From a virus (lineage: Duplodnaviria > Caudoviricetes): a stretch of 64,000 bases of DNA. Below, one piece after another: positions 5,075-35,537 of the stretch. The notes beneath the pieces were generated by a model. It ran no database searches, had not been told where the DNA came from, and saw only the letters and a list, made by a program, of their open reading frames with translations. Both the position numbers and the translations under genes were made by a program. Every line of letters begins with the position of its first letter. The stretch's first letter is position 1. Where the stretch lies: IMG/VR virus record IMGVR_UViG_3300017700_000931, positions 224,001 through 288,000 of that record; one strand, 5' to 3'.

Positions 5075-5498
5075 TCTTTTCGTTGTTTAATTTGGAAATT
5101 AAATATTGAATTTTAGTTAACAATGCTGCATCCATAACAGATTTGCTAGCATAGGTACTAATTGTTTTATCCATAGCTTTAATCAAATCACCCTCAATCA
5201 TTTTGATTTCATTTTCTTGATGTTTTTCAACTTCCTCAATGATTTTGCTTGGGTCTATTGCTTCACCTTGAGTGAATGGATACTTCTTAATCACTTCATT
5301 CAATACTTTACCTTGTGATTCAGCAATTTCAAATCTAGTGTAATCCGTAACCGGAACACCAGTATAAGTATAGTTGGTACCCTTAGCGAAAGTTATTGTC
5401 AAGGCTCCATTGGCTTTATCGTATTTTGAAGCTAATACGTTAGAAGATTTGTAAATCGATTTTACAATTCCATCTTTTTCTACTCTTTTTAAAATCAT
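5067..5498 (-). CDS. KTSC-domain protein
   Basis: SSNVLASKYD...LTITF.KGTNYTYTGVP...AESQGK pattern typical of KTSC. Confidence 0.8.
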   Translation of the reverse strand: MILKRVEKDGIVKSIYKSSNVLASKYDKANGALTITFAKGTNYTYTGVPVTDYTRFEIAESQGKVLNEVIKKYPFTQGEAIDPSKIIEEVEKHQENEIKMIEGDLIKAMDKTISTYASKSVMDAALLTKIQYLISKLNNEKNG

Positions 5499-5507
5499 TA
5501 ATTAAAT

Positions 5508-5717
5508 TTATTTTGCTTTATATGTTATGTATTTTTTCATGTTGGATAATTCAAATACTTGACCCTCAGTTTTTTGTGACCCGCTGATGCTATCCAATTT
5601 ATCACTAATGACAATAATTTTGTCAGCGGTTAGAATCATTCCACAATCTTTAAAATCTGTCATGGTATCATCTCGCCAATATAATTCTATTGTTTCGTAT
5701 TTTGGGGCTCCTTGCAT
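5508..5717 (-). CDS. Hypothetical protein
   Basis: 69-aa ORF at the head of the thyA operon. Confidence 0.65.
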   Translation of the reverse strand: MQGAPKYETIELYWRDDTMTDFKDCGMILTADKIIVISDKLDSISGSQKTEGQVFELSNMKKYITYKAK

Positions 5718-5744
5718 TTGATTATTTTTATGCTTTTGTTATCT

Positions 5745-5812
5745 GATACAAAGATACTGGATTTTTTTATAAAATCAACCTTGTTTTTTAAAAAATAAAC
5801 CATATATTTGCA
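5745..5812. promoter_or_regulatory. Divergent Bacteroidota-type promoters
   Basis: TATCTTTG on minus (~5750) and TATATTTG on plus (5803-5810) between the thyA operon and clpC. Confidence 0.65.
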
Positions 5813-5830
5813 GTAAAGTTAGTTTGATTA

Positions 5831-8347
5831 ATGAAGAAGGATGTTCTACCGAAGGTAAAAATTGTTATGAAGAATGCCTTCGAAGAAGCGAAGGCTTTTA
5901 GTGATATTAAACTAAGACCGGAGCATATAATGATGTCAATGATTACTGATGATGACAACAAATGTGTTGATATCCTAAAAGAATTAAAGGTTGACTTAAG
6001 TGAATTATATGATAGATTGAGTAGATATTTGATTGAAAGTGATTTGATACCAAGAATTACTACTTCAGCAAATGTTGATTTACCACCAAGTGAACTAACA
6101 ACTAAAATTTTTAAAACAATTGATAACGAATGCGACGAATTAGGTGATGCCGCAATAGATTTAACACATATAATGTTAGCTATCTTAAATCAAGATTCAC
6201 CAACAACTAGTATCCTACTTGAAATGGGAGTAAACTATAAAAATTTCAAAAACCTTATTATGAATAAAAACGAAGAAACAAAAGGTTCATACGATGAATC
6301 AGATGAAATGAATGAAGGTTCTAAATCAATCAACAATAAGAAAAAAAACACGACAACGAAAACACCAGTTTTAGATAACTTCTGTAGGGACGTTAGTAAG
6401 GCTGCTGAAGATGGTTTAATTGACCCAGTAGTTGGTAGACATAATGAAATCAAACGTGTTTCAACAATCCTATCTAGAAGAAAGAAAAACAATCCAGTTT
6501 TAATTGGAGAACCCGGAGTTGGTAAAACTTCTATTGTAGAAGGATTAGCCCAACTTATCAAAGATAAAAAAGCACCAAGATGCCTTTTAGAAAAAAGAAT
6601 TTATTCATTGGACCTTGCTTCAATTGTTGCTGGTACAAAGTATCGTGGACAATTTGAAGAAAGAATGAAAGCGATTCTTGAAGAATTGAAAGAGAACCCA
6701 AATGTAGTATTGTTTATTGATGAGTTACATACCATCGTAGGTGCTGGTAATGCTAGTGGTTCGTTGGATGCATCCAATATCTTTAAACCAGCATTGGCTC
6801 GTGGTGAGATACAAGTAATTGGTGCTACAACACTTGATGAGTTCCGTGAAAACATCGAAAAAGATGGTGCATTAACTCGTAGATTCCAACAAGTTTTAAT
6901 TGAGGAACCGACTAACGAAGAAACTGTCACAATCCTTATGAATATTAAGGATAAATACGAAAATCACCACAAGGTTAAGTATACACGAGAAGCAATTGAA
7001 GAATGTGTTAAGATGGCTGATAGATATATCTCTGATAGAGCTATGCCAGACAAAGCAATCGATATTCTAGATGAAGCTGGAGCTATTACTAATGTTGACA
7101 TTGAAGTTCCAGATAATATTAAAAAATTAGAAATCAAAAAGGTTGAAATTGAAGCTAAAAAAGTTGCTGTTGTTGCAAAACAACAATATGAAGAAGCTGC
7201 TAAATTGAGAGATGACGAAAAGAAAGTTGAGGAAGATATTGAAAAAGCTAAAAAAGAATGGATTGAAAGTTTAGATAAAGAACGAACAATCATTACTGTT
7301 GAATTGGTTGCCGAAGTAGTTTCCAATATGACTGGTATTCCACTTAGTAAAGTTTCAACTGAAGACACTAAACAATTGGCTCAAATGGAAGCTAATCTTT
7401 CTGGAGCTGTAATCGGACAAGATGAGGCTGTTATTAAGGTTTCTAAAGCAATCAAAAGAAGTAGATTGGGGATTAGAAAAGGTGGTAAACCAATCGGTTC
7501 ATTTATTTTCTTAGGACCAACTGGTGTAGGTAAAACTTATCTGGCCAAATTACTCGCCGAATATGTTTTTGGTGATAAAGATGCGTTGGTTCGTATTGAT
7601 ATGAGTGAATACATGGAGAAATTCTCTACATCCAGATTAATCGGGGCACCTCCGGGGTATGTCGGATATGAAGAAGGTGGTAAATTGACTGAAGCAATTC
7701 GTCGTAAACCTTACTCAGTCGTATTGTTTGATGAAATTGAAAAAGCACATCCTGATGTCTTCAATCTATTATTACAATTACTAGATGAAGGACAACTTAC
7801 TGATTCACTTGGACGTAAAATCGATTTCAAAAATACTATGGTAATCATGACATCAAATATTGGTGTTAAAGAATTGAATAGTTTTGGAACTGCGGTTGGA
7901 TTTGCTACTGGTGATACTATCGTAAAAGAAGAAAAAAGAGCTCACGATATTATCGAAAAAGCACTAAAGAAAAAATTCCCACCAGAATTTCTTAATCGTT
8001 TGGATGATACAATCATCTTCAATTCATTGAAAGAAGAAGACATTCATAAAATCATTAAAATTGAAATTAAAGATGTCGAAAGTAGAATGGCCGAACTTGG
8101 TTATAAAATTAAGTTAGACAAAAAAGGGATGGAATATATTGCCAAACAAGGTTACGACCAAGAATTTGGTGCCAGACCATTAAGTCGTGCAATTCAAAGA
8201 TACATCGAAGATACAATTGCCGATGAAGTGATTAATGGGAATGTCCAACAAGGGGATACCATCAAAATTAGTTACAATAAAACTAAGGATGAAATGGTCA
8301 TCAGCACGGAAAAATCTTCCAAGGAAGAAACTACCGATGAAGAGTAA
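5831..8347 (+). CDS. clpC: ATP-dependent Clp protease ATPase subunit, ClpC type
   Basis: Clp N-domain, Walker A GEPGVGKT and GPTGVGKT, FIDELH, UVR-like KQQYEEAAKLRD, GAPPGYVGYEEGG, FGARPL. Confidence 0.95.
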   Translation: MKKDVLPKVKIVMKNAFEEAKAFSDIKLRPEHIMMSMITDDDNKCVDILKELKVDLSELYDRLSRYLIESDLIPRITTSANVDLPPSELTTKIFKTIDNECDELGDAAIDLTHIMLAILNQDSPTTSILLEMGVNYKNFKNLIMNKNEETKGSYDESDEMNEGSKSINNKKKNTTTKTPVLDNFCRDVSKAAEDGLIDPVVGRHNEIKRVSTILSRRKKNNPVLIGEPGVGKTSIVEGLAQLIKDKKAPRCLLEKRIYSLDLASIVAGTKYRGQFEERMKAILEELKENPNVVLFIDELHTIVGAGNASGSLDASNIFKPALARGEIQVIGATTLDEFRENIEKDGALTRRFQQVLIEEPTNEETVTILMNIKDKYENHHKVKYTREAIEECVKMADRYISDRAMPDKAIDILDEAGAITNVDIEVPDNIKKLEIKKVEIEAKKVAVVAKQQYEEAAKLRDDEKKVEEDIEKAKKEWIESLDKERTIITVELVAEVVSNMTGIPLSKVSTEDTKQLAQMEANLSGAVIGQDEAVIKVSKAIKRSRLGIRKGGKPIGSFIFLGPTGVGKTYLAKLLAEYVFGDKDALVRIDMSEYMEKFSTSRLIGAPPGYVGYEEGGKLTEAIRRKPYSVVLFDEIEKAHPDVFNLLLQLLDEGQLTDSLGRKIDFKNTMVIMTSNIGVKELNSFGTAVGFATGDTIVKEEKRAHDIIEKALKKKFPPEFLNRLDDTIIFNSLKEEDIHKIIKIEIKDVESRMAELGYKIKLDKKGMEYIAKQGYDQEFGARPLSRAIQRYIEDTIADEVINGNVQQGDTIKISYNKTKDEMVISTEKSSKEETTDEE

Positions 8348-13733: not shown

Positions 13734-14072
13734 TTATTTATAGAATCGCCTCAATAAATCAAGGTTTTCATAATCTCTAATTTTCAATATGTGGGCCCAG
13801 AGATATTTTTTAATTTCATTGTCTCTATCAATGATATCTGAAATAATATCATTCGGATTCTCCCCACCAGTTAATCGATATTTTATTTCATCAAAATAAT
13901 CAGCCCTATCCAATCTTACCAGTTCTGCTATTATTGATTCATAAGTGTGCCATCTTTCTTTCGTTTCTTCGTTGGTATTTCTTAAGTAGTTTTTAATAAA
14001 TCTGTTATACATTTTATCTAGCGTATTGTACGTGCCAGACCCCGCCCTGATAGTAATTTTAGAAGTCTCCAT
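13734..14072 (-). CDS. Hypothetical protein
   Basis: 112 aa; shares a Y.L...E.P motif with 14490..14840. Confidence 0.7.
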   Translation of the reverse strand: METSKITIRAGSGTYNTLDKMYNRFIKNYLRNTNEETKERWHTYESIIAELVRLDRADYFDEIKYRLTGGENPNDIISDIIDRDNEIKKYLWAHILKIRDYENLDLLRRFYK

Positions 14073-14202
14073 GTTACTATAAATTTAACATTGTTATTTG
14101 ATAATAAATATCATTTCGAACAACAATGTCGGGGTGTTTTGAATATAAAAAAGATTAACCTTTGATAGGATTAAATTAGGCCGGATTTAATATATAAAAA
14201 AA

Positions 14203-14490
14203 TTATTCATATAAATCCGCAATGAATTTTTCTACTTTATCATCAATCATTTTGGTAATGTTTTCATCGTTTGGGTCATCCCTTAAAATGTTGAATTCAT
14301 TATCCAACCCCTCAAAAATTTCTGATTTAATATTACCATCCATGAAATGTTCTATTTTGATGATGAACTCAGGATTTAAGATATAATGTTTGTCAACATA
14401 CTTAGAAAGAATCCTAACTCTTTGTTTATTGAAAATTTCTTCAACCTCTTCTTGGGTATAGACTTTCCCATTAATTCTAATTTTCGACAT
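14203..14490 (-). CDS. Hypothetical protein
   Basis: 95-aa coupled ORF. Confidence 0.65.
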   Translation of the reverse strand: MSKIRINGKVYTQEEVEEIFNKQRVRILSKYVDKHYILNPEFIIKIEHFMDGNIKSEIFEGLDNEFNILRDDPNDENITKMIDDKVEKFIADLYE

Positions 14491-14840
14491 TATCCAAATT
14501 TTATTATTTTTTTGTACAATCGCTCCAACTCAGATGAACGCTCTTTTACTTCACTTATTACTTCAATGCAAACATTTTTCGGGTCCTCAACATCGGTTAG
14601 CCTATATTGTAATTCTTTAACCCTAACCATGTCTTTCAGATTATTTTTGAATTCGATAATAACCTGATTGTAGGTGGCCCAAGCTCTTTTAATACTCAAC
14701 GCCTCAGATGTTAGCCTTTTATTTAAATGCTCTTCATAAAGTTTTTCAACGATAGTTTCTTCATACTTGTGTTCTAAATAAGTTTCAAAGTTACCATACG
14801 ATTCTCTAAGCTCTTTTTTTATCTTATCCCTTAAGTCCAT
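14490..14840 (-). CDS. Hypothetical protein
   Basis: Start placed at MDLRDKIKKELRES. Confidence 0.65.
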   Translation of the reverse strand: MDLRDKIKKELRESYGNFETYLEHKYEETIVEKLYEEHLNKRLTSEALSIKRAWATYNQVIIEFKNNLKDMVRVKELQYRLTDVEDPKNVCIEVISEVKERSSELERLYKKIIKFG

Positions 14841-15105: not shown

Positions 15106-15443
15106 GCAATAGGTGTGTTTTTTGACAGAGTACCAGTCTTATCTAAATTACCTTTAAACCAATCAGTAATAACTTGCTTAACAAAAGTCGCACCAAGTTT
15201 ATACTTATACATCATGTAATCAAATAAAGACTTTGGAGTCATTAACTCTTGATTGACCTTATTGAGCACCATAGGTTGTTCATGAAACTCACCACCCTTT
15301 TTATAGGTTCCTTTTGATGGTTCATAATTCAAATCCAAATCTGCCGCAATACGTCTAACTAATATCTCATGATTATTTGATTCATAGATATAGTCCCTCA
15401 GCACCAATAGCTGACTTTCCGATATTAATACTCTTTTTGCCAT
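15102..15443 (-). CDS. Hypothetical protein with an ISESQL motif
   Basis: 113 aa, ATATTTAT 5 nt upstream. Confidence 0.7.
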   Translation of the reverse strand: MAKRVLISESQLLVLRDYIYESNNHEILVRRIAADLDLNYEPSKGTYKKGGEFHEQPMVLNKVNQELMTPKSLFDYMMYKYKLGATFVKQVITDWFKGNLDKTGTLSKNTPIA

Positions 15444-15486
15444 ACTAATAAATATTTGGCAAATATGAAATATAGTCCTAGTGGGA

Positions 15487-15813
15487 CTACTTTAAAGCAT
15501 TAATTTTATTTTGGTAAGCTGATTTTGGGTTGGCCCCCAATAATCTATCAACCACAACACCATTTTTTATAAAAAGAATCGCCGGAATACTTCTAATACC
15601 GTAGTTAGTAGCACTAACCGGATTCTCATCCACGTTTATTTTACCAACCATAATATCTGGGTTGTCATTTGCTAGTTCATCAATCACCGGACCTACCATT
15701 CGACAAGGTCCACACCAAGCCGCCCAAAAATCAATTACTACTAATTCTGAATTTAAAACCTCACCAATATTTGAATCTGTTATCTCTAAAGCCATTTCAC
15801 ATTTTTTTATCAT
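15487..15813 (-). CDS. trxA: Thioredoxin
   Basis: DFWAAWCGPCRM, KINVDE, GIRSIP. Confidence 0.97.
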   Translation of the reverse strand: MIKKCEMALEITDSNIGEVLNSELVVIDFWAAWCGPCRMVGPVIDELANDNPDIMVGKINVDENPVSATNYGIRSIPAILFIKNGVVVDRLLGANPKSAYQNKINALK

Positions 15814-30868: not shown

Positions 30869-30944
30869 GTGGTTTAGTTTATTAGTTTGACAGGACAAAT
30901 ATAAAACAATATTTGATATAAACCTAATTTTTTATGAATTATTT

Positions 30945-31014
30945 TTGAATAAAAAAAGAAAAGTCCCTAGTGTAGTTTTGGTTAGCTACGATACTAGGGA
31001 CTTTATAACCAATA
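30945..31014 (-). terminator. Long-stem terminator closing the ncRNA/tRNA transcript
   Basis: AAAGTCCCTAGT/ACTAGGGACTTT 12-bp stem plus a T-tract on minus. Confidence 0.75.
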
Positions 31015-31252
31015 AACATGAAGTAACCAGCTGCATGTATCTTTTTGCGTTGTTACGCAAATGGGAGGGGACACAAATGATAAACTACATACGTCTCATC
31101 TATCAATTGTTAATAAGTTCCGTTGTCGTACTAACAACTTCTTTATTAAGTCCCCATGTATCTTAAAACACTATCAAAGTCCCATAATTAATGACCTTTG
31201 GGTATTAGTAGACGGAACGGTCATGCGCCCTACTTTGGTAATGTTAATTTAG

Positions 31253-31324
31253 CGCACGAGGTGGGACTCGAACCCACAACTATCCGTTGAAAAGACGGTG
31301 CTTTACCAGTTAAGCTACTGTGCT
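31253..31324 (-). tRNA. Degenerate tRNA (anticodon ambiguous: Lys-UUU or Glu-UUC)
   Basis: TAGCTTAACTGGTAAAGC D-arm and GTGGG-TTCGAGT-CCCAC T-arm intact; bulged acceptor stem, 4-bp anticodon stem CCGT/ACGG, no CCA. Confidence 0.7.
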
Positions 31325-31620
31325 GGGGTTTCCCCCATTTTAGGTGTGCACACCTACTAAGGCCGTACCTTGCCTTAGTGCTACGTTTGGTCAGACGGCC
31401 ATCCAACCTAAAGGGGTGTTTGCTTGCCCACTTTTGCTATTCGGCAACCTCTGTCAACCGCCTTGTTGGGAGGTTGTACACATTATGCCGATACTAGCTT
31501 CTTTCAACCGCTTGGTACACACCGGAGCGAACTCCGAAAACCTAAGCGGTTATCATATCTATTGTTGTCACTTTATCGGGTTTGCTGGTCTTGGTAGGAC
31601 AACTCACCTTAACACCCAAC
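31325..31620 (-). ncRNA. Candidate structured ncRNA (~300 nt) upstream of the tRNA
   Basis: Own TATCTTTG promoter (~31628-31635), about 50% GC by eye, at least six stems including UUCG and GAAA tetraloops. Confidence 0.6.
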
Positions 31621-31665
31621 TGAGGAACAAAGATAAAACAAATATTTCATTCCACCAAATTATTT

Positions 31666-31857
31666 TTAATCTTTTTTAAAAATAATGAAGAACATATTTA
31701 CAAACGCCCCAACAATTCCACCAATCAACGGAATTAAAAAATTCCAGTTTGCTGGGTCATGGTTAATAATGTAATCTGCACCCTCAACAATTCCCCAAAT
31801 TGCACCTGAAATATATGCAATTGCACAAAGGAAGTGAATCAAAATGTTCATAGCCAT
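31666..31857 (-). CDS. Small 2-TM membrane protein
   Basis: 63 aa, hydrophobic. Confidence 0.6.
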   Translation of the reverse strand: MAMNILIHFLCAIAYISGAIWGIVEGADYIINHDPANWNFLIPLIGGIVGAFVNMFFIIFKKD

Positions 31858-32066
31858 ACGGTTACTTTTTTATGTTTTGATGATAACATTAGGTAGTGAC
31901 CTCGTGCCGTTGATAAGAATTACGCTTTCGCCACCTCAACGTGTGTATCCTCTACCTAGTGTTATTGTTTTAGATTACTTTTTCATAACGGGGCGTGTTT
32001 TTGGTTAATACTTTGAATAAATAATATCAGGAAACAAATATAAGTATAATATTTTAATCTACCAAA

Positions 32067-32420
32067 TTAAAATTCAAGTTTTATTTTAGTTATTAATTGG
32101 TTATCGTACATTTGTTCTTTACCCTCAGTATATTCGTATGCTTGTATAATGTATGACAACCAACTTTGTTTGTCATCAAATTCTGAGCGGTTTTCATAAT
32201 CAAAATGAACATCAATAATAGTTCCATCCAATAATGTAACACTCGTCCATTCATCAGAATCATTAAAAACTATTGTTTGTTTACATTTAATGCTAGACTT
32301 TGAATCTTTTTGGAATGTCTCCCAACTTTTATCTTCAAAATCCAAAACAAGTTCAGTACCTTTTTTTAATGTGTATTCTAATACAACACTTCTAAATCCT
32401 AAATTTAATATCGCTTTCAT
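32067..32420 (-). CDS. Hypothetical early protein
   Basis: Start placed at MKAILNLG after the hairpin-leader. Confidence 0.7.
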   Translation of the reverse strand: MKAILNLGFRSVVLEYTLKKGTELVLDFEDKSWETFQKDSKSSIKCKQTIVFNDSDEWTSVTLLDGTIIDVHFDYENRSEFDDKQSWLSYIIQAYEYTEGKEQMYDNQLITKIKLEF

Positions 32421-32823
32421 GGTTATCCGGTTAAATTGGTTATTTGATAAAGGGCATAAAGCCCTTTGGTTAACCACCCATATCCTCTGAAACCTCAGAC
32501 ATCAATGTGCCGTCTTCAAATTCTTTGCCTTCTGCAAGGGCTTCAATTTCCTCACCCTCAATAGAACGAGTAACGGCTCTTAATGCTGACAAAATTTGTT
32601 CCTTTGTTCCTGAACCAGTAATTTTAATTTGTAATTGCATATCGTTTGTTTTAGTTTGACTGATACAAATATAATACTATATTTTCAATTGACCAAATTA
32701 TTTTGAACTTATTTTATGAATTAATTTCACAACAATTGGTTGAACATAAGAAAGTGTTATAATCATTCCGCTCACAATTAAAATAAAGTACATAGGTTGA
32801 GTTTTTGATAAGGGTTTTACCCC

Positions 32824-33015
32824 TTATTCTTCTTCCTCAACATCAATAATATCGGAGGCAGAAATATCTGAAATGAAAATCTTTGGTTCTGCTTCCAGTT
32901 CACTAGCACCAACAATATTATTCATTACCTCTAAGGTGTCCTGAACCTCTGTCAAATCATTCCCACCCTCTTTAATTAACAATTGAATTTGTACGGTTAC
33001 TGTAATTGCTTTCAT
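32824..33015 (-). CDS. Small acidic early protein
   Basis: 63 aa, cassette leader. Confidence 0.7.
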   Translation of the reverse strand: MKAITVTVQIQLLIKEGGNDLTEVQDTLEVMNNIVGASELEAEPKIFISDISASDIIDVEEEE

Positions 33016-33060
33016 ATCTGGTTACTTTTATTAGTTTGATAAAGGGGTTTCCCCCTTTAT

Positions 33061-33390
33061 TTAGTTAGTCGTATAAGCAATTGAAACAACAATATATTCT
33101 TCATCGACTGTATGTGTGTTAACCTCAACCGCAACATAGAAATCACTCTCAGTTTGGGCTTCAACACATTCGTGAATAATATCAATTGGTTGGTCATAAG
33201 TTTCAAGTGTTTCTTCAATCACTCGTTCTGCTTCTGAAACGAAACCTTTTTCTAAGGTATCCTCTCTATACTGTTCTACATTTTCTGTGAAGTCAGCATC
33301 AAAGAATAATTCTAAGAGGCTTTCTTTTGTAAGTTTACCATCTTCACCGAATCGAACAATTACTAATTTTGAATTTAATGTTACTTGCAT
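33061..33390 (-). CDS. Acidic early protein
   Basis: 109 aa, cassette leader. Confidence 0.75.
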   Translation of the reverse strand: MQVTLNSKLVIVRFGEDGKLTKESLLELFFDADFTENVEQYREDTLEKGFVSEAERVIEETLETYDQPIDIIHECVEAQTESDFYVAVEVNTHTVDEEYIVVSIAYTTN

Positions 33391-33436
33391 ATCTGGTTAC
33401 TTTTTAGTTTGATATTGGGGGCAATTGCCCCCAAAT

Positions 33437-33622
33437 TTAAATACTTTCTTCAAAATTATGGTCAATAGCTTGGTCAACAATACCAGAGTCAACAACTTTA
33501 ACGCCATCAGTATTGGTTGTAATTGTACAATCAAGTTCTTCAGCAATTTTTCTCAATTGTTTTGGGGTTACTGGTTTGTCAAGTTCAACTCGTACATTTA
33601 AATAAAAAACATTCACTTTCAT
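33437..33622 (-). CDS. Small early protein
   Basis: 61 aa, cassette leader. Confidence 0.7.
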   Translation of the reverse strand: MKVNVFYLNVRVELDKPVTPKQLRKIAEELDCTITTNTDGVKVVDSGIVDQAIDHNFEESI

Positions 33623-33846
33623 ATCTGGTTACATTTTTAGTTTGATAAAAGAGGGGAATTAATTCCACCCCTTTTTGTGCTTATCCTTTCGGTTATAAGC
33701 CTTTTTGTTTTTTTGCACCATTGGGCGTACCGCTTGGTGAATTTCGTGTTGGGTGAGTTGAATTGTTTGCAGTTTCATAATTGGTTATTTTAGTTTGACA
33801 TGACAAATATAATACAATATTTCTTATCCACCAAACTTTTTTGCAA

Positions 33847-34179
33847 TTATTTTTTACTTAAATCGTAAGGCACTGCATCCAAGCCATATTCACAGGTATA
33901 TCCAATGGCTTCCAATTTCTCCACTAAGGTAGCACAAGCCTCATAAGTCATCGTATCAGTTGAGTACTTGTCTAATACTGCTTTAACCTCGTCCGGCAAG
34001 TTGTCGTAATCCTCAAATAAATCGGTACTTTGGTTAAATAACTCCAACCATTGTTTGGTTGTATATAAACCATATTTATTTCTACATTCGTCAATACTTA
34101 GATTGAATCTAATTGACGCAATATTCAAATATTTTCTGTAGGTTGAAATTGCTGGTAATTTGTCCTCTATTTGGTTCAT
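33847..34179 (-). CDS. Hypothetical early protein
   Basis: 110 aa, cassette leader. Confidence 0.7.
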   Translation of the reverse strand: MNQIEDKLPAISTYRKYLNIASIRFNLSIDECRNKYGLYTTKQWLELFNQSTDLFEDYDNLPDEVKAVLDKYSTDTMTYEACATLVEKLEAIGYTCEYGLDAVPYDLSKK

Positions 34180-34222
34180 ACTGGTTACATTTATTAGTTT
34201 GATAAGGGGTTAACCCCCTTGC

Positions 34223-34435
34223 TTATAATCTCTCAATTATAAGCATTGACTTTTTGAATTCATGGTTACACCCATCACATGCCATACTGAAATAAATTTC
34301 ATTATCGTGACCCAATAATTTGTATGCTTTTTTTAAATCTGGGTCAGCCTCCTGAATTTGGTTTTTACTGGAATGTGCCAATGGTTCGTTGTCGGTTGTA
34401 CGCACCATGAAAGAATTGCATTTTGGACAGTTCAT
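34223..34435 (-). CDS. Small zinc-ribbon protein
   Basis: MNCPKC...ACDGCNHEF; start after the leader. Confidence 0.7.
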   Translation of the reverse strand: MNCPKCNSFMVRTTDNEPLAHSSKNQIQEADPDLKKAYKLLGHDNEIYFSMACDGCNHEFKKSMLIIERL

Positions 34436-34482
34436 AAAGTTGTTTATTAGTTTGATATTTGTGGGGCAATTGCCCCACAAAT

Positions 34483-34767
34483 TTAATAAACACAAATTTC
34501 CTCCATCTTAATATCCTCATAGAAATCTGAATCCTCAGCCTCAATTAAAACGTGTGCTGACAATACAACGGTTGTGCTTAATTGAAGACTTTCAACTGTA
34601 ACAATTTTCACCGGACAAGAATAATGTTCTTTCAATGCCAAAACTAGTTTTGGCTCAACAATTTCTCTTAGGTTAATTTTTTTAGTATCGTTGACTTCAC
34701 CTAAGTCAATAACACCAACATTTTTTTGACCTTCAATCGCAATGTTTACAAAGATTCTTCTTTTCAT
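34483..34767 (-). CDS. Hypothetical early protein
   Basis: Start placed at MKRRIF. Confidence 0.7.
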   Translation of the reverse strand: MKRRIFVNIAIEGQKNVGVIDLGEVNDTKKINLREIVEPKLVLALKEHYSCPVKIVTVESLQLSTTVVLSAHVLIEAEDSDFYEDIKMEEICVY

Positions 34768-34870
34768 AATGGTTACGTTTATTAGTTTGACAATACAAAT
34801 ATAATACAATATTTGATATAAACCAAATTATTTGTAATTAATTTTGATAAAGGGGTTTCCCCCTTTGTGG

Positions 34871-35380
34871 TTATCTGTAATACTCCCTTACAGTATAATC
34901 AATGGTTTGCTTGAACGCATCCAATTCCTTTTGCATCTCGTTTAGCTTAGCCAGTTTTTTCAATTCAGCATCCAAATCAATGGTTTTATCCAAATCGTAC
35001 TCAGTGACTAGTTTATCGTAATCCTCGACGCTAATCAATAAGCCGTCTTTAATTTGACCAATTGCAATTCTTCGCTCAAAGTATTCTGTATATGCAGTGC
35101 TTGGACGAACGTCATAAGAACCACCGAATTTGCATATCTTGAAATTAATATACATACATCCATGAGCAAAGGTAATATACCCAACGGAACGCTCACCTTT
35201 TTCATCCTTTACAATAAGAGGTAATAACGAATCAGCACTTTTAACCAGTACGTTACTTGCTTTAACAATTTTTTTGCCTAGGAAAAATACTAAGGCGGGT
35301 AGAATTTGTTTTAGGGTTTCTTTAATTGCGGTATTCAATTCCTTGTTACCTTCAATCACAATGTTAATAGGTGTTTTCAT
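34871..35380 (-). CDS. Hypothetical early protein
   Basis: 169 aa, promoter-leader module. Confidence 0.75.
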   Translation of the reverse strand: MKTPINIVIEGNKELNTAIKETLKQILPALVFFLGKKIVKASNVLVKSADSLLPLIVKDEKGERSVGYITFAHGCMYINFKICKFGGSYDVRPSTAYTEYFERRIAIGQIKDGLLISVEDYDKLVTEYDLDKTIDLDAELKKLAKLNEMQKELDAFKQTIDYTVREYYR

Positions 35381-35537
35381 AATTTAGTGGTTTAGTTTAT
35401 TAGTTTGACTGGTACAAATATAATACTATATTTTTAATCTACCAAATAAAAAGTGAATTATTTTTAAATAAAAAAACCCCATCCAGACCGGACAGGGTTT
35501 TCCTCGTGAAATTGTCGTCAAACTATAACCACGGAAA

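Follow-up and report, generated by a model that had tools for sequence, protein, structure and literature searches.

A stretch of ~300 nt (positions 31325–31620) in a jumbo phage sequence is probably a gene for a folded non-coding RNA, with an early promoter of its own and linked to a tRNA, and we propose that the RNA is released as a separate species by RNase P. The window analysed here comprises 64,000 nt and corresponds to bases 224001–288000 of a virus record that is 362,532 bp long and has direct terminal repeats. The phage, whose host group is Bacteroidota, encodes a major capsid protein of the T4 type and 57 tRNA genes and has a genome-wide G+C content of 32.7%. Judged by sequence comparison, the RNA is a small new family that is so far known from a few T4-type jumbo phages of Bacteroidota alone, all of them close relatives. 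A preliminary description of the same DNA had taken the stretch for a promoter-driven, highly structured and non-coding region of the minus strand, and this view is upheld by a full promoter motif, the lack of a sense ORF, the fold and the covariation. The family is of interest as it combines a compact size (~300 nt) with a defined promoter motif and helices supported by covariation.

Organization of the predicted transcription unit

The genes around the stretch lie nearly all on the minus strand. With a G+C content of 0.49–0.50, compared with a genome mean of 0.327, the stretch forms the core of a 452-bp island of 48% G+C. The non-coding gap that contains it (30899–31665) is a single unit consisting of a promoter, the structured 300 nt, the tRNA, ~250 nt more and finally a hairpin with a U run. 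No terminator is found between the promoter and the tRNA, and a strong one follows 3′ of the tRNA. The unit as a whole folds with a z score of −8.0 (20 shuffles).

The promoter is of the early host type and was identified by motif match at 31628–31659 of the minus strand, with TTTG at −33 and a −7 box TATCTTTG at 31635–31628; the complete sequence (31659–31628) is TTTGGTGGAATGAAATATTTGTTTTATCTTTG. The corresponding Bacteroidota-type motif, TTTGN17-23TANNTTTG, occurs 30 times in the window compared with 6.7 copies expected by chance. The promoter is identical in two of the homologous loci described below (L126 and L132) and is missing from a deletion form (L120). The fixed leader and start codon of the adjacent protein cassettes are missing here.

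A transcript started by this promoter would begin at ~31621 and would fold into a helix closing its 5′ and 3′ ends, six hairpins (H0–H5) and then a palindromic element (H6). It would run without a terminator into the tRNA (31323–31252) and the 3′ element that follows, and would end near 30950. Cleavage by host RNase P at the 5′ end of the tRNA (31324/31323) would then free a discrete and presumably stable RNA of ~300 nt.

The unit ends with an intrinsic terminator (30944–31005, minus strand), recognized from its fold, in which an imperfect hairpin of 17 bp precedes a U run. In L120, L126 and L132 this hairpin is inverted. A 45-nt part of the terminator (30960–31004, minus strand) lies in the opposite orientation in L120, L126, L128 and L132 and matches with 100% identity in reverse, suggestive of inversion between the two arms of an imperfect inverted repeat. 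A segment of 120 nt (31046–31165, minus strand) lies between direct repeats AAGATACATG (31034–31043 and 31155–31164, plus strand). It is present in L126 and L132 and missing in L120–L123, and the absence together with the flanking repeats suggests a repeat-mediated deletion.

Coding capacity and comparison with known RNA families

The earlier statement that the minus strand holds no credible open reading frame is correct, with none of at least 60 amino acids in the stretch. The only long open frame, unmentioned in the preliminary description, is one of 111 amino acids on the plus strand (31344–31679). It is scarcely credible that this frame is what the stretch encodes. A run of 111 codons without a stop slightly exceeds what shuffled sequences give (P ~0.04), but the frame has no match in Pfam or PHROG and no true homologue among 1.84 billion representative proteins, the sole match being a 53-aa tandem-repeat protein whose score sums 33 copies of 13/29 identities and which is therefore an artefact. 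There is no plus-strand promoter, and the frame is antisense to all neighbouring genes and crosses the minus-strand promoter. In addition, the homologues differ by indels (1, 2 and 5 nt) and by a block of replaced sequence, which would break it.

The preliminary description could assign no family, and covariance models lead to the same answer. Rfam 15 (4227 models, including GOLLD, ROOL, OLE, HEARO, 6S, RNase P, tmRNA, SRP, T-box, riboswitches and self-cleaving ribozymes) gives no match over 31310–31640 even at E ≤ 10, and over 30900–32100 it gives the tRNA alone. The homologue in L126 likewise has no Rfam match. ARAGORN, run at thresholds of 95–80%, reports only the known tRNA, with 0 hits in the stretch at 80% compared with 0.11 per shuffle. 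No tmRNA is found by ARAGORN in the window or the genome, and the Rfam tmRNA model is silent over the locus. RNase P RNA and 6S RNA are excluded by the absent Rfam match. A bacterial Y RNA of the YrlA type acting with Ro/Rsr was also rejected, as the phage has no TROVE or RtcB gene and the RNA no Rfam match. Theta (HDV-like) ribozymes are nested double pseudoknots that cleave within 5 nt of the tRNA 3′ end, a position that the ~300-nt RNA, lying 5′ of the tRNA, does not share.

Fold stability and homologues

The minus strand of the stretch folds with a minimum free energy (MFE) of −104.4 kcal/mol and a z score of −3.7, with 0/100 shuffles as stable. Among 213 windows of 300 nt on the minus strand the mean z score is −1.08 (sd 1.57), so that a value of −3.7 stands out only moderately by itself. 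None of the 213 windows has a lower free energy than the stretch, however, and its z score is the best of the G+C-rich, ORF-free islands of the genome. Most helices have pair probabilities of at least 0.9, and the homologues fold with z scores of −2.8 and −3.05.

These homologues were reached through exact-protein look-ups of the downstream 59-aa and 52-aa proteins, which occur letter-for-letter on several Logan contigs. The locus was found in four forms, L130, L126/L127, L132 and the deletion form L120–L123. L130, from another sample, is 100% identical over 1.9 kb, and the RNA body is 90.5% identical to that of this phage in L126/L127 and 73.5% identical in L132. Searches elsewhere place a limit on the family. 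Among 33 related virus records, three complete genomes among them, BLAST and two single-sequence covariance models (R1 and R2) found the phage's own copy only, and BLAST against 50,697 phage records gave a match to the tRNA only. Exact and degenerate DNA patterns of the locus had no match in viral or metagenome contigs. A scan of genome contigs gave one 30-nt match inside a gene of a Flavobacteriales MAG, which was set aside as chance since ~1 is expected. Synteny followed through the 211-aa, 139-aa, 136-aa and ParB genes led to no homologous locus, and the nearest syntenic relatives, L086/L087 (reached via a 182-aa gene), lack the locus.

Architecture of the RNA

The stems, palindrome and promoter picked out in the preliminary description all lie where it had put them on the minus strand. 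The RNA starts with a 5′ segment, AGUUGGGUGUUAAGGUGA (31604–31621), defined by the MFE and consensus folds. This segment can close the fold with the 3′ half of the palindrome by UUGGGUGU/ACACCUAA here and by UUAAGGUG/CACCUUAA in the relatives. The segment is invariant in three copies, so covariation speaks neither for nor against this closing helix. Helix H0 (31564–31603) was found by comparison and consists of GUUGUCCU (31603–31596) paired with AGUGACAAC (31572–31564), with one bulged U. It is not part of the single-sequence MFE and was overlooked by the preliminary description. All 8 of its pairs are retained in every copy, and it carries two adjacent compensating pairs, U-A/G-C here versus G-C/U-A in L126 and L132.

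Hairpin H1 (31505–31552) has a 9-bp base, a GGU/ACC middle and a CGGAG/CUCCG tip, all with pair probabilities of 0.93–1.0. Its stem AACCGCTT/AAGCGGTT (31506–31513/31544–31551) encloses CGGAG-UUCG-CUCCG. The tip described earlier is thus present in this phage, but the UUCG loop is not conserved and becomes UUUUG in the relatives. H1 has 97% of its cells paired (a cell being one pair in one copy) and shows three one-sided G-U/A-U changes. A long-range pairing of 17 bp between the region before H1 and that before the terminator, seen in a 681-nt fold, was judged compatible with chance.

Hairpin H2 (31436–31498) is built from a GCUA/UAGC base, UCGGCA/UGCCGA and CAACC/GGUUG, with pair probabilities of 0.9–1.0. 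The two helices previously listed here, TCGGCA/TGCCGA (31441–31446/31486–31491) and CAACCTC/GAGGTTG (31445–31451/31470–31476), both exist but have two bases in common, so they cannot both form in full. In L132 the GCU(U)A/UAGC base is retained, but the sequence above it is unrelated to H2 and folds into a long hairpin of its own (−24.8 kcal/mol).

Hairpin H3 (31410–31434) carries the loop AAGCAAACA, which is invariant, and shows a change from G-C to A-U in L132. H4 (31389–31408) has the form GGUUGGAU-GGCC-GUCUGACC, with three G-U pairs on the minus strand. L132 keeps a 7-bp hairpin at this point (GUUAGUU/AACUGAAC, one bulge) with a longer loop, where A-U is replaced by U-A and several G-U pairs by A-U. 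A single-stranded linker, AAACGUAGC (31380–31388), is identical in all four lineages and, with the preceding ACC, reads ACCAAACGUAGC. It leads to H5 (31356–31379), ACUAAGGC-AAGGUACG-GCCUUAGU, whose stem is ACTAAGGC/GCCTTAGT at 31356–31363/31372–31379. Across the four lineages H5 has two compensating pairs and two different U-G variants around an invariant 8-nt loop, and the chance of all its pairs surviving random substitution is ~0.004.

Apart from its last base, the 16-nt palindrome H6 (31341–31356) is conserved throughout the lineages. In all copies it can fold on itself as a hairpin; alternatively, its 3′ half can pair with the 5′ segment and its 5′ half with the H3 loop. The segments involved are invariant, and for this reason the data do not choose between these pairings. 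Finally, the GC hairpin H7 (31324–31337), UGGGG-GAAA-CCCCA, is recognized from its sequence and abuts the 5′ end of the tRNA. It is present as first described, but it occurs only in this phage and the identical copy L130; the same hairpin separates early genes at 33043–33056 and 34851–34864. H7 is thus an unconserved copy of a generic intercistronic hairpin of the early gene cassettes.

Covariation and the strand of the structure

The A5 alignment contains three distinct full-length copies, which do not differ in the promoter or the first ~58 nt. For this alignment RNAalifold gives 92 pairs, 9 with compensating changes; MAFFT misaligns L132 within H2 and H4. The structure tested has 68 pairs, made up of H0, H1, H2, H3, H4, H5 and the palindrome hairpin, and 93.1% of its cells are standard pairs. 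Eight pairs are changed on both sides, compared with 2.8±1.3 in shuffles (0/500 reach 8) and 0–2 when partners are slid by 1–3 columns as a control, statistics that are weak in absolute terms because the three sequences are all close relatives and the structure was partly derived from one of them. The covariation test named in the preliminary description thus comes out in its favour. A conserved structure with compensating changes among homologues, the generic criterion for a structured non-coding RNA, is found here in 3 distinct sequences, and the compensating changes argue for a real and selected RNA structure.

Outside the replaced block, 25/105 paired columns are variable compared with 10/108 unpaired ones (loops and junctions). 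Stems that vary more than loops are the pattern expected if loops and junctions are read by sequence.

It is very unlikely that the stretch is an element acting as DNA, such as a palindrome bound by a protein, a site of replication or recombination, or a fragment of high G+C content that was imported. Such an element would fit the almost equal MFE of the plus strand (−102.4 versus −104.4 kcal/mol), the perfect 16-bp palindrome and the nature of the locus as a hot spot of indels with an inverted terminator hairpin. The G-U pairs and one-sided G-U changes, however, suit the sense strand only. Here 93.1% of cells are paired, 15 of them G-U, compared with 87.2% and 3 G-U cells on the opposite strand, a bias that agrees with the direction of promoter, tRNA and terminator. 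Compensating changes in seven separate short hairpins are also unexpected for protein-binding sites.

A decayed array of tRNA genes, or junk RNA that is G+C-rich merely through recent acquisition, is even harder to reconcile with these data and is extremely unlikely. The stretch does adjoin a tRNA, and in related phages the same general locus contains tRNA-like genes that bear large insertions. Against this, neither ARAGORN at 80% thresholds nor the Rfam tRNA model at E ≤ 10 detects anything within the stretch, which has no second copy in its own genome and is similar to no other region of it. The compensating changes and conserved loops also show ongoing selection.

The tRNA and the 3′ element

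The tRNA (31252–31323, minus strand) is recognized by Rfam (41 bits) and ARAGORN. It has the anticodon UUU, a 6-bp acceptor stem with a bulge, a 4-bp anticodon stem and C37. Its homologues (L120 3664–3740, L126 3428–3504 and L132 3232–3308) have the anticodon CUA and A37 and share with it the T arm and the 6-bp acceptor. The combination of UUU and C37 is confined to this phage and L130, and CUA is found in three of the four lineages. The acceptor stem changes from C-G to U-A and the D stem from U-A to C-G, and the anticodon stem has 3/4 pairs changed on both sides. Close relatives thereby carry three different D and anticodon arms on one tRNA scaffold. The covariation of all its stems suggests that the tRNA is fast-evolving yet under selection. 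The name ‘pseudo-tRNA’, used for it at first, does not hold, given that the odd arms covary among relatives and that CUA stands in three of four lineages. The tRNA is predicted to be expressed from early promoters and to be of the amber-suppressor type in the relatives.

The tRNA is followed by a 3′ element of ~90 nt (31160–31249, minus strand), defined by its conservation with L120. The two copies are identical at 85/89 aligned bases, without gaps, whereas identity in the tRNA itself falls to 70%. Of the four differences, three are in the first six positions beside the tRNA end and one is further in. The element contains crossing complementary segments (AGUAG/CUACU, AUGACC/GGUCAU and GUUCC/GGGAC) and may be a pseudoknot or a ribozyme. 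Its nested fold is not significant (z +0.28), and it has no match in Rfam or to the HDV family.

Two further structured elements are found in the relatives. An identical insert of 119 nt (L126 3505–3623 and L132 3309–3427; −37 kcal/mol) lies between the CUA tRNA and the 3′ element. It has no Rfam match and is absent from this phage and L120. L126 also has a 125-nt tRNA-like gene with a large insertion (2874–2998; Rfam tRNA, 42.9 bits), which directly precedes the RNA promoter and takes the place of a gene for a 63-aa membrane protein.

A natural deletion of the 5′ body

The form L120–L123 is represented by four contigs, each from a different sequencing run and all unchanged. Only the last ~70 nt of the RNA are left in it, with the promoter and H0–H4 gone. 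The promoter and leader of the upstream gene (window 32087–31905, 94% identical) are fused to the H4 loop at the junction CAACGG joined to CAAGUAAC, with a microhomology GGC, which fits an H4 of the L132 type. One strand of the closing stem of the leader and one strand of H4 are left partnerless at the junction, and these orphaned strands indicate a deletion in L120–L123 and not an insertion in the other lineages. The deletion took the membrane-protein gene, the RNA promoter and H0–H4, and spared ACCAAACGUAGC, H5, H6 and the tRNA. That lineage can therefore do without the 5′ body, and H5 and H6, the only hairpins that the tRNA of this form retains, look tRNA-linked. We suggest that H5 and H6 would be tied to tRNA production and that H0–H4 would be an accessory module, lost in one lineage. 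Together the natural variants provide a deletion series, with a full form, a form with H2 swapped and one without H0–H4.

The region affected has features of its own. The 63-aa membrane-protein gene has a structured 5′ leader (31883–31965, minus strand; L120 3540–3600) that is 94% conserved in relatives. The deletion halves this leader in L120, leaving the 5′ strand of a 14-bp closing stem unpaired. Compared with window 32087–35414, the L120-type phage also lacks ~3.3 kb of small early genes and has a 228-aa gene in place of a 139-aa gene, a difference consistent with mosaic exchange as part of early-cassette shuffling.

Comparison with known systems and possible roles

T4 RNA C and RNA D have lengths of ~120–140 nt. 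They are stable small non-coding RNAs of the T4 tRNA region, with a role that is unknown (Virol J 2010, PMC3014915). The RNA described here is like them in belonging to a T4-type phage and in its predicted co-transcription with a tRNA gene, a likeness by context alone. It differs in length and in position: RNA C and RNA D belong to the main tRNA cluster, but the ~300-nt RNA accompanies a solitary tRNA in the early region and has its own promoter.

GOLLD and ROOL are large structured RNAs of phages and prophages that are often near tRNA islands, and tRNAs are sometimes found in the GOLLD linker (bioRxiv 10.1101/2024.12.08.627333). The preliminary remark that GOLLD often lies beside tRNAs is accurate and extends to ROOL (bioRxiv 10.1101/2024.12.08.627333). 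Like these RNAs, the unit described here has folded RNA on both sides of a tRNA. Unlike them, it has no Rfam match at E ≤ 10, is half to a third of their size and has a different architecture. Nothing in the sequence, from which the ~300-nt RNA is known here, points to the formation of multimers as in GOLLD and ROOL. The functions of such tRNA-linked structured phage RNAs (T4 RNA C/D, GOLLD and ROOL) are long-standing riddles.

Theta ribozymes, which are minimal HDV-like ribozymes, are fused to tRNAs, often suppressor tRNAs, in Bacteroidota phages; they are small, lie at the tRNA 3′ end within 5 nt and cut the trailer (Nat Commun 2024, PMC10879173). The present RNA, in contrast, has ~300 nt and lies 5′ of the tRNA, and the unit has no HDV-type Rfam match.

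A parallel in position is offered by pre-tRNA leaders and tRNA punctuation, since the ~300-nt RNA abuts the 5′ end of a tRNA with an intact D/T elbow. Cleavage by RNase P would define the 3′ end of an RNA that abuts a tRNA 5′ end. It is unlike such leaders in being unusually long and in having its own conserved fold and, in this phage, a terminal GC hairpin, with cleavage as a predicted step. We think it unlikely that the stretch serves the tRNA precursor solely as a long, structured 5′ leader, one that in cis aids the processing, stability, folding or transcription of the tRNA and gives rise to a fragment that has no job and is degraded. The same tRNA always follows the RNA immediately, with no intervening terminator, the tRNA of the deletion form has H5 and H6 only and is driven by an upstream promoter, and a positional analogue in another contig (L118, below) also has G+C-rich spacers among tRNA-like genes under early promoters. 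What such a leader would leave unexplained is the ~230 nt of conserved and compensated helices H0–H4, with loops more conserved than stems; to our knowledge, this far exceeds the needs of known bacterial pre-tRNA leaders. The other 56 tRNAs of the phage have no such leader. Were the stretch only a leader, it would be an ordinary curiosity of a hypervariable early region.

The size, conserved loops and separate promoter favour more than a passive leader. For a tRNA-linked non-coding RNA released by RNase P, possible roles are the control of maturation of a suppressor-type tRNA, or a role in trans such as that of a decoy. A bolder form of this idea, doubtful at present, is that H0–H6 is a new class of phage regulatory RNA coupled to an early, rapidly diversifying tRNA of the amber-suppressor type. 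It could then gate the maturation or level of the tRNA, or act with the tRNA as a decoy for host anticodon nucleases or other RNA-targeting defences. This would explain the fast turnover of stems and of one whole hairpin around fixed loops, and a threefold exchange of the anticodon arm on one tRNA scaffold. If the RNA does control or cooperate with the tRNA, it would link phage non-coding RNA to stop-codon suppression or anti-defence.

Analogous loci and other candidate RNAs

The upstream 63-aa membrane protein led to a positional analogue of the locus in a 169-kb metagenome contig (L118). At 5190–6346 this contig has a homologue of the membrane protein (65% identical), followed by two early promoters and by four tRNA-like genes with two spacers rich in G+C. 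Of these spacers, the second (6008–6243) folds with a z score of −4.5 and has no Rfam match. A likeness between ‘CCGAAUAG...AGUGGG’ and an L118 spacer was judged to be chance. Neither L118 nor the tRNA-like loci of G007, G024 and G014 have detectable sequence or model similarity to the ~300-nt RNA.

Related jumbo phages contain tRNA genes that large insertions (26 nt within the anticodon region, or a variable arm of ~56 nt) extend to totals of 97–129 nt. Such loci are found at L101 18300–19400 (G007 98.3–99.4 kb), G014:359201–359314, G031:88313–88424, G031:95806–95933 and G024:139823–140314. In G007 they are part of the early region and have, on either side, homologues of the genes flanking the ~300-nt RNA locus.

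Three stretches outside the window (G000:289730–290477, 13958–14516 and 15339–15682) are free of ORFs, have G+C contents of 26–44% and fold far better on the minus strand (e.g. −207 versus −162 kcal/mol). No Rfam family matches them at E ≤ 0.01, and on the basis of these predicted folds they may be more unassigned RNAs. Finally, positions 1–89 of L089 (G000:24800–24888, minus strand) give a sub-threshold match to the Bacteroidales small SRP RNA (39 bits, gathering threshold 55.2, E 1.3e-4), cut by the edge of the locus. The phage may thus encode an SRP-like RNA, and the match points to a Bacteroidota host.
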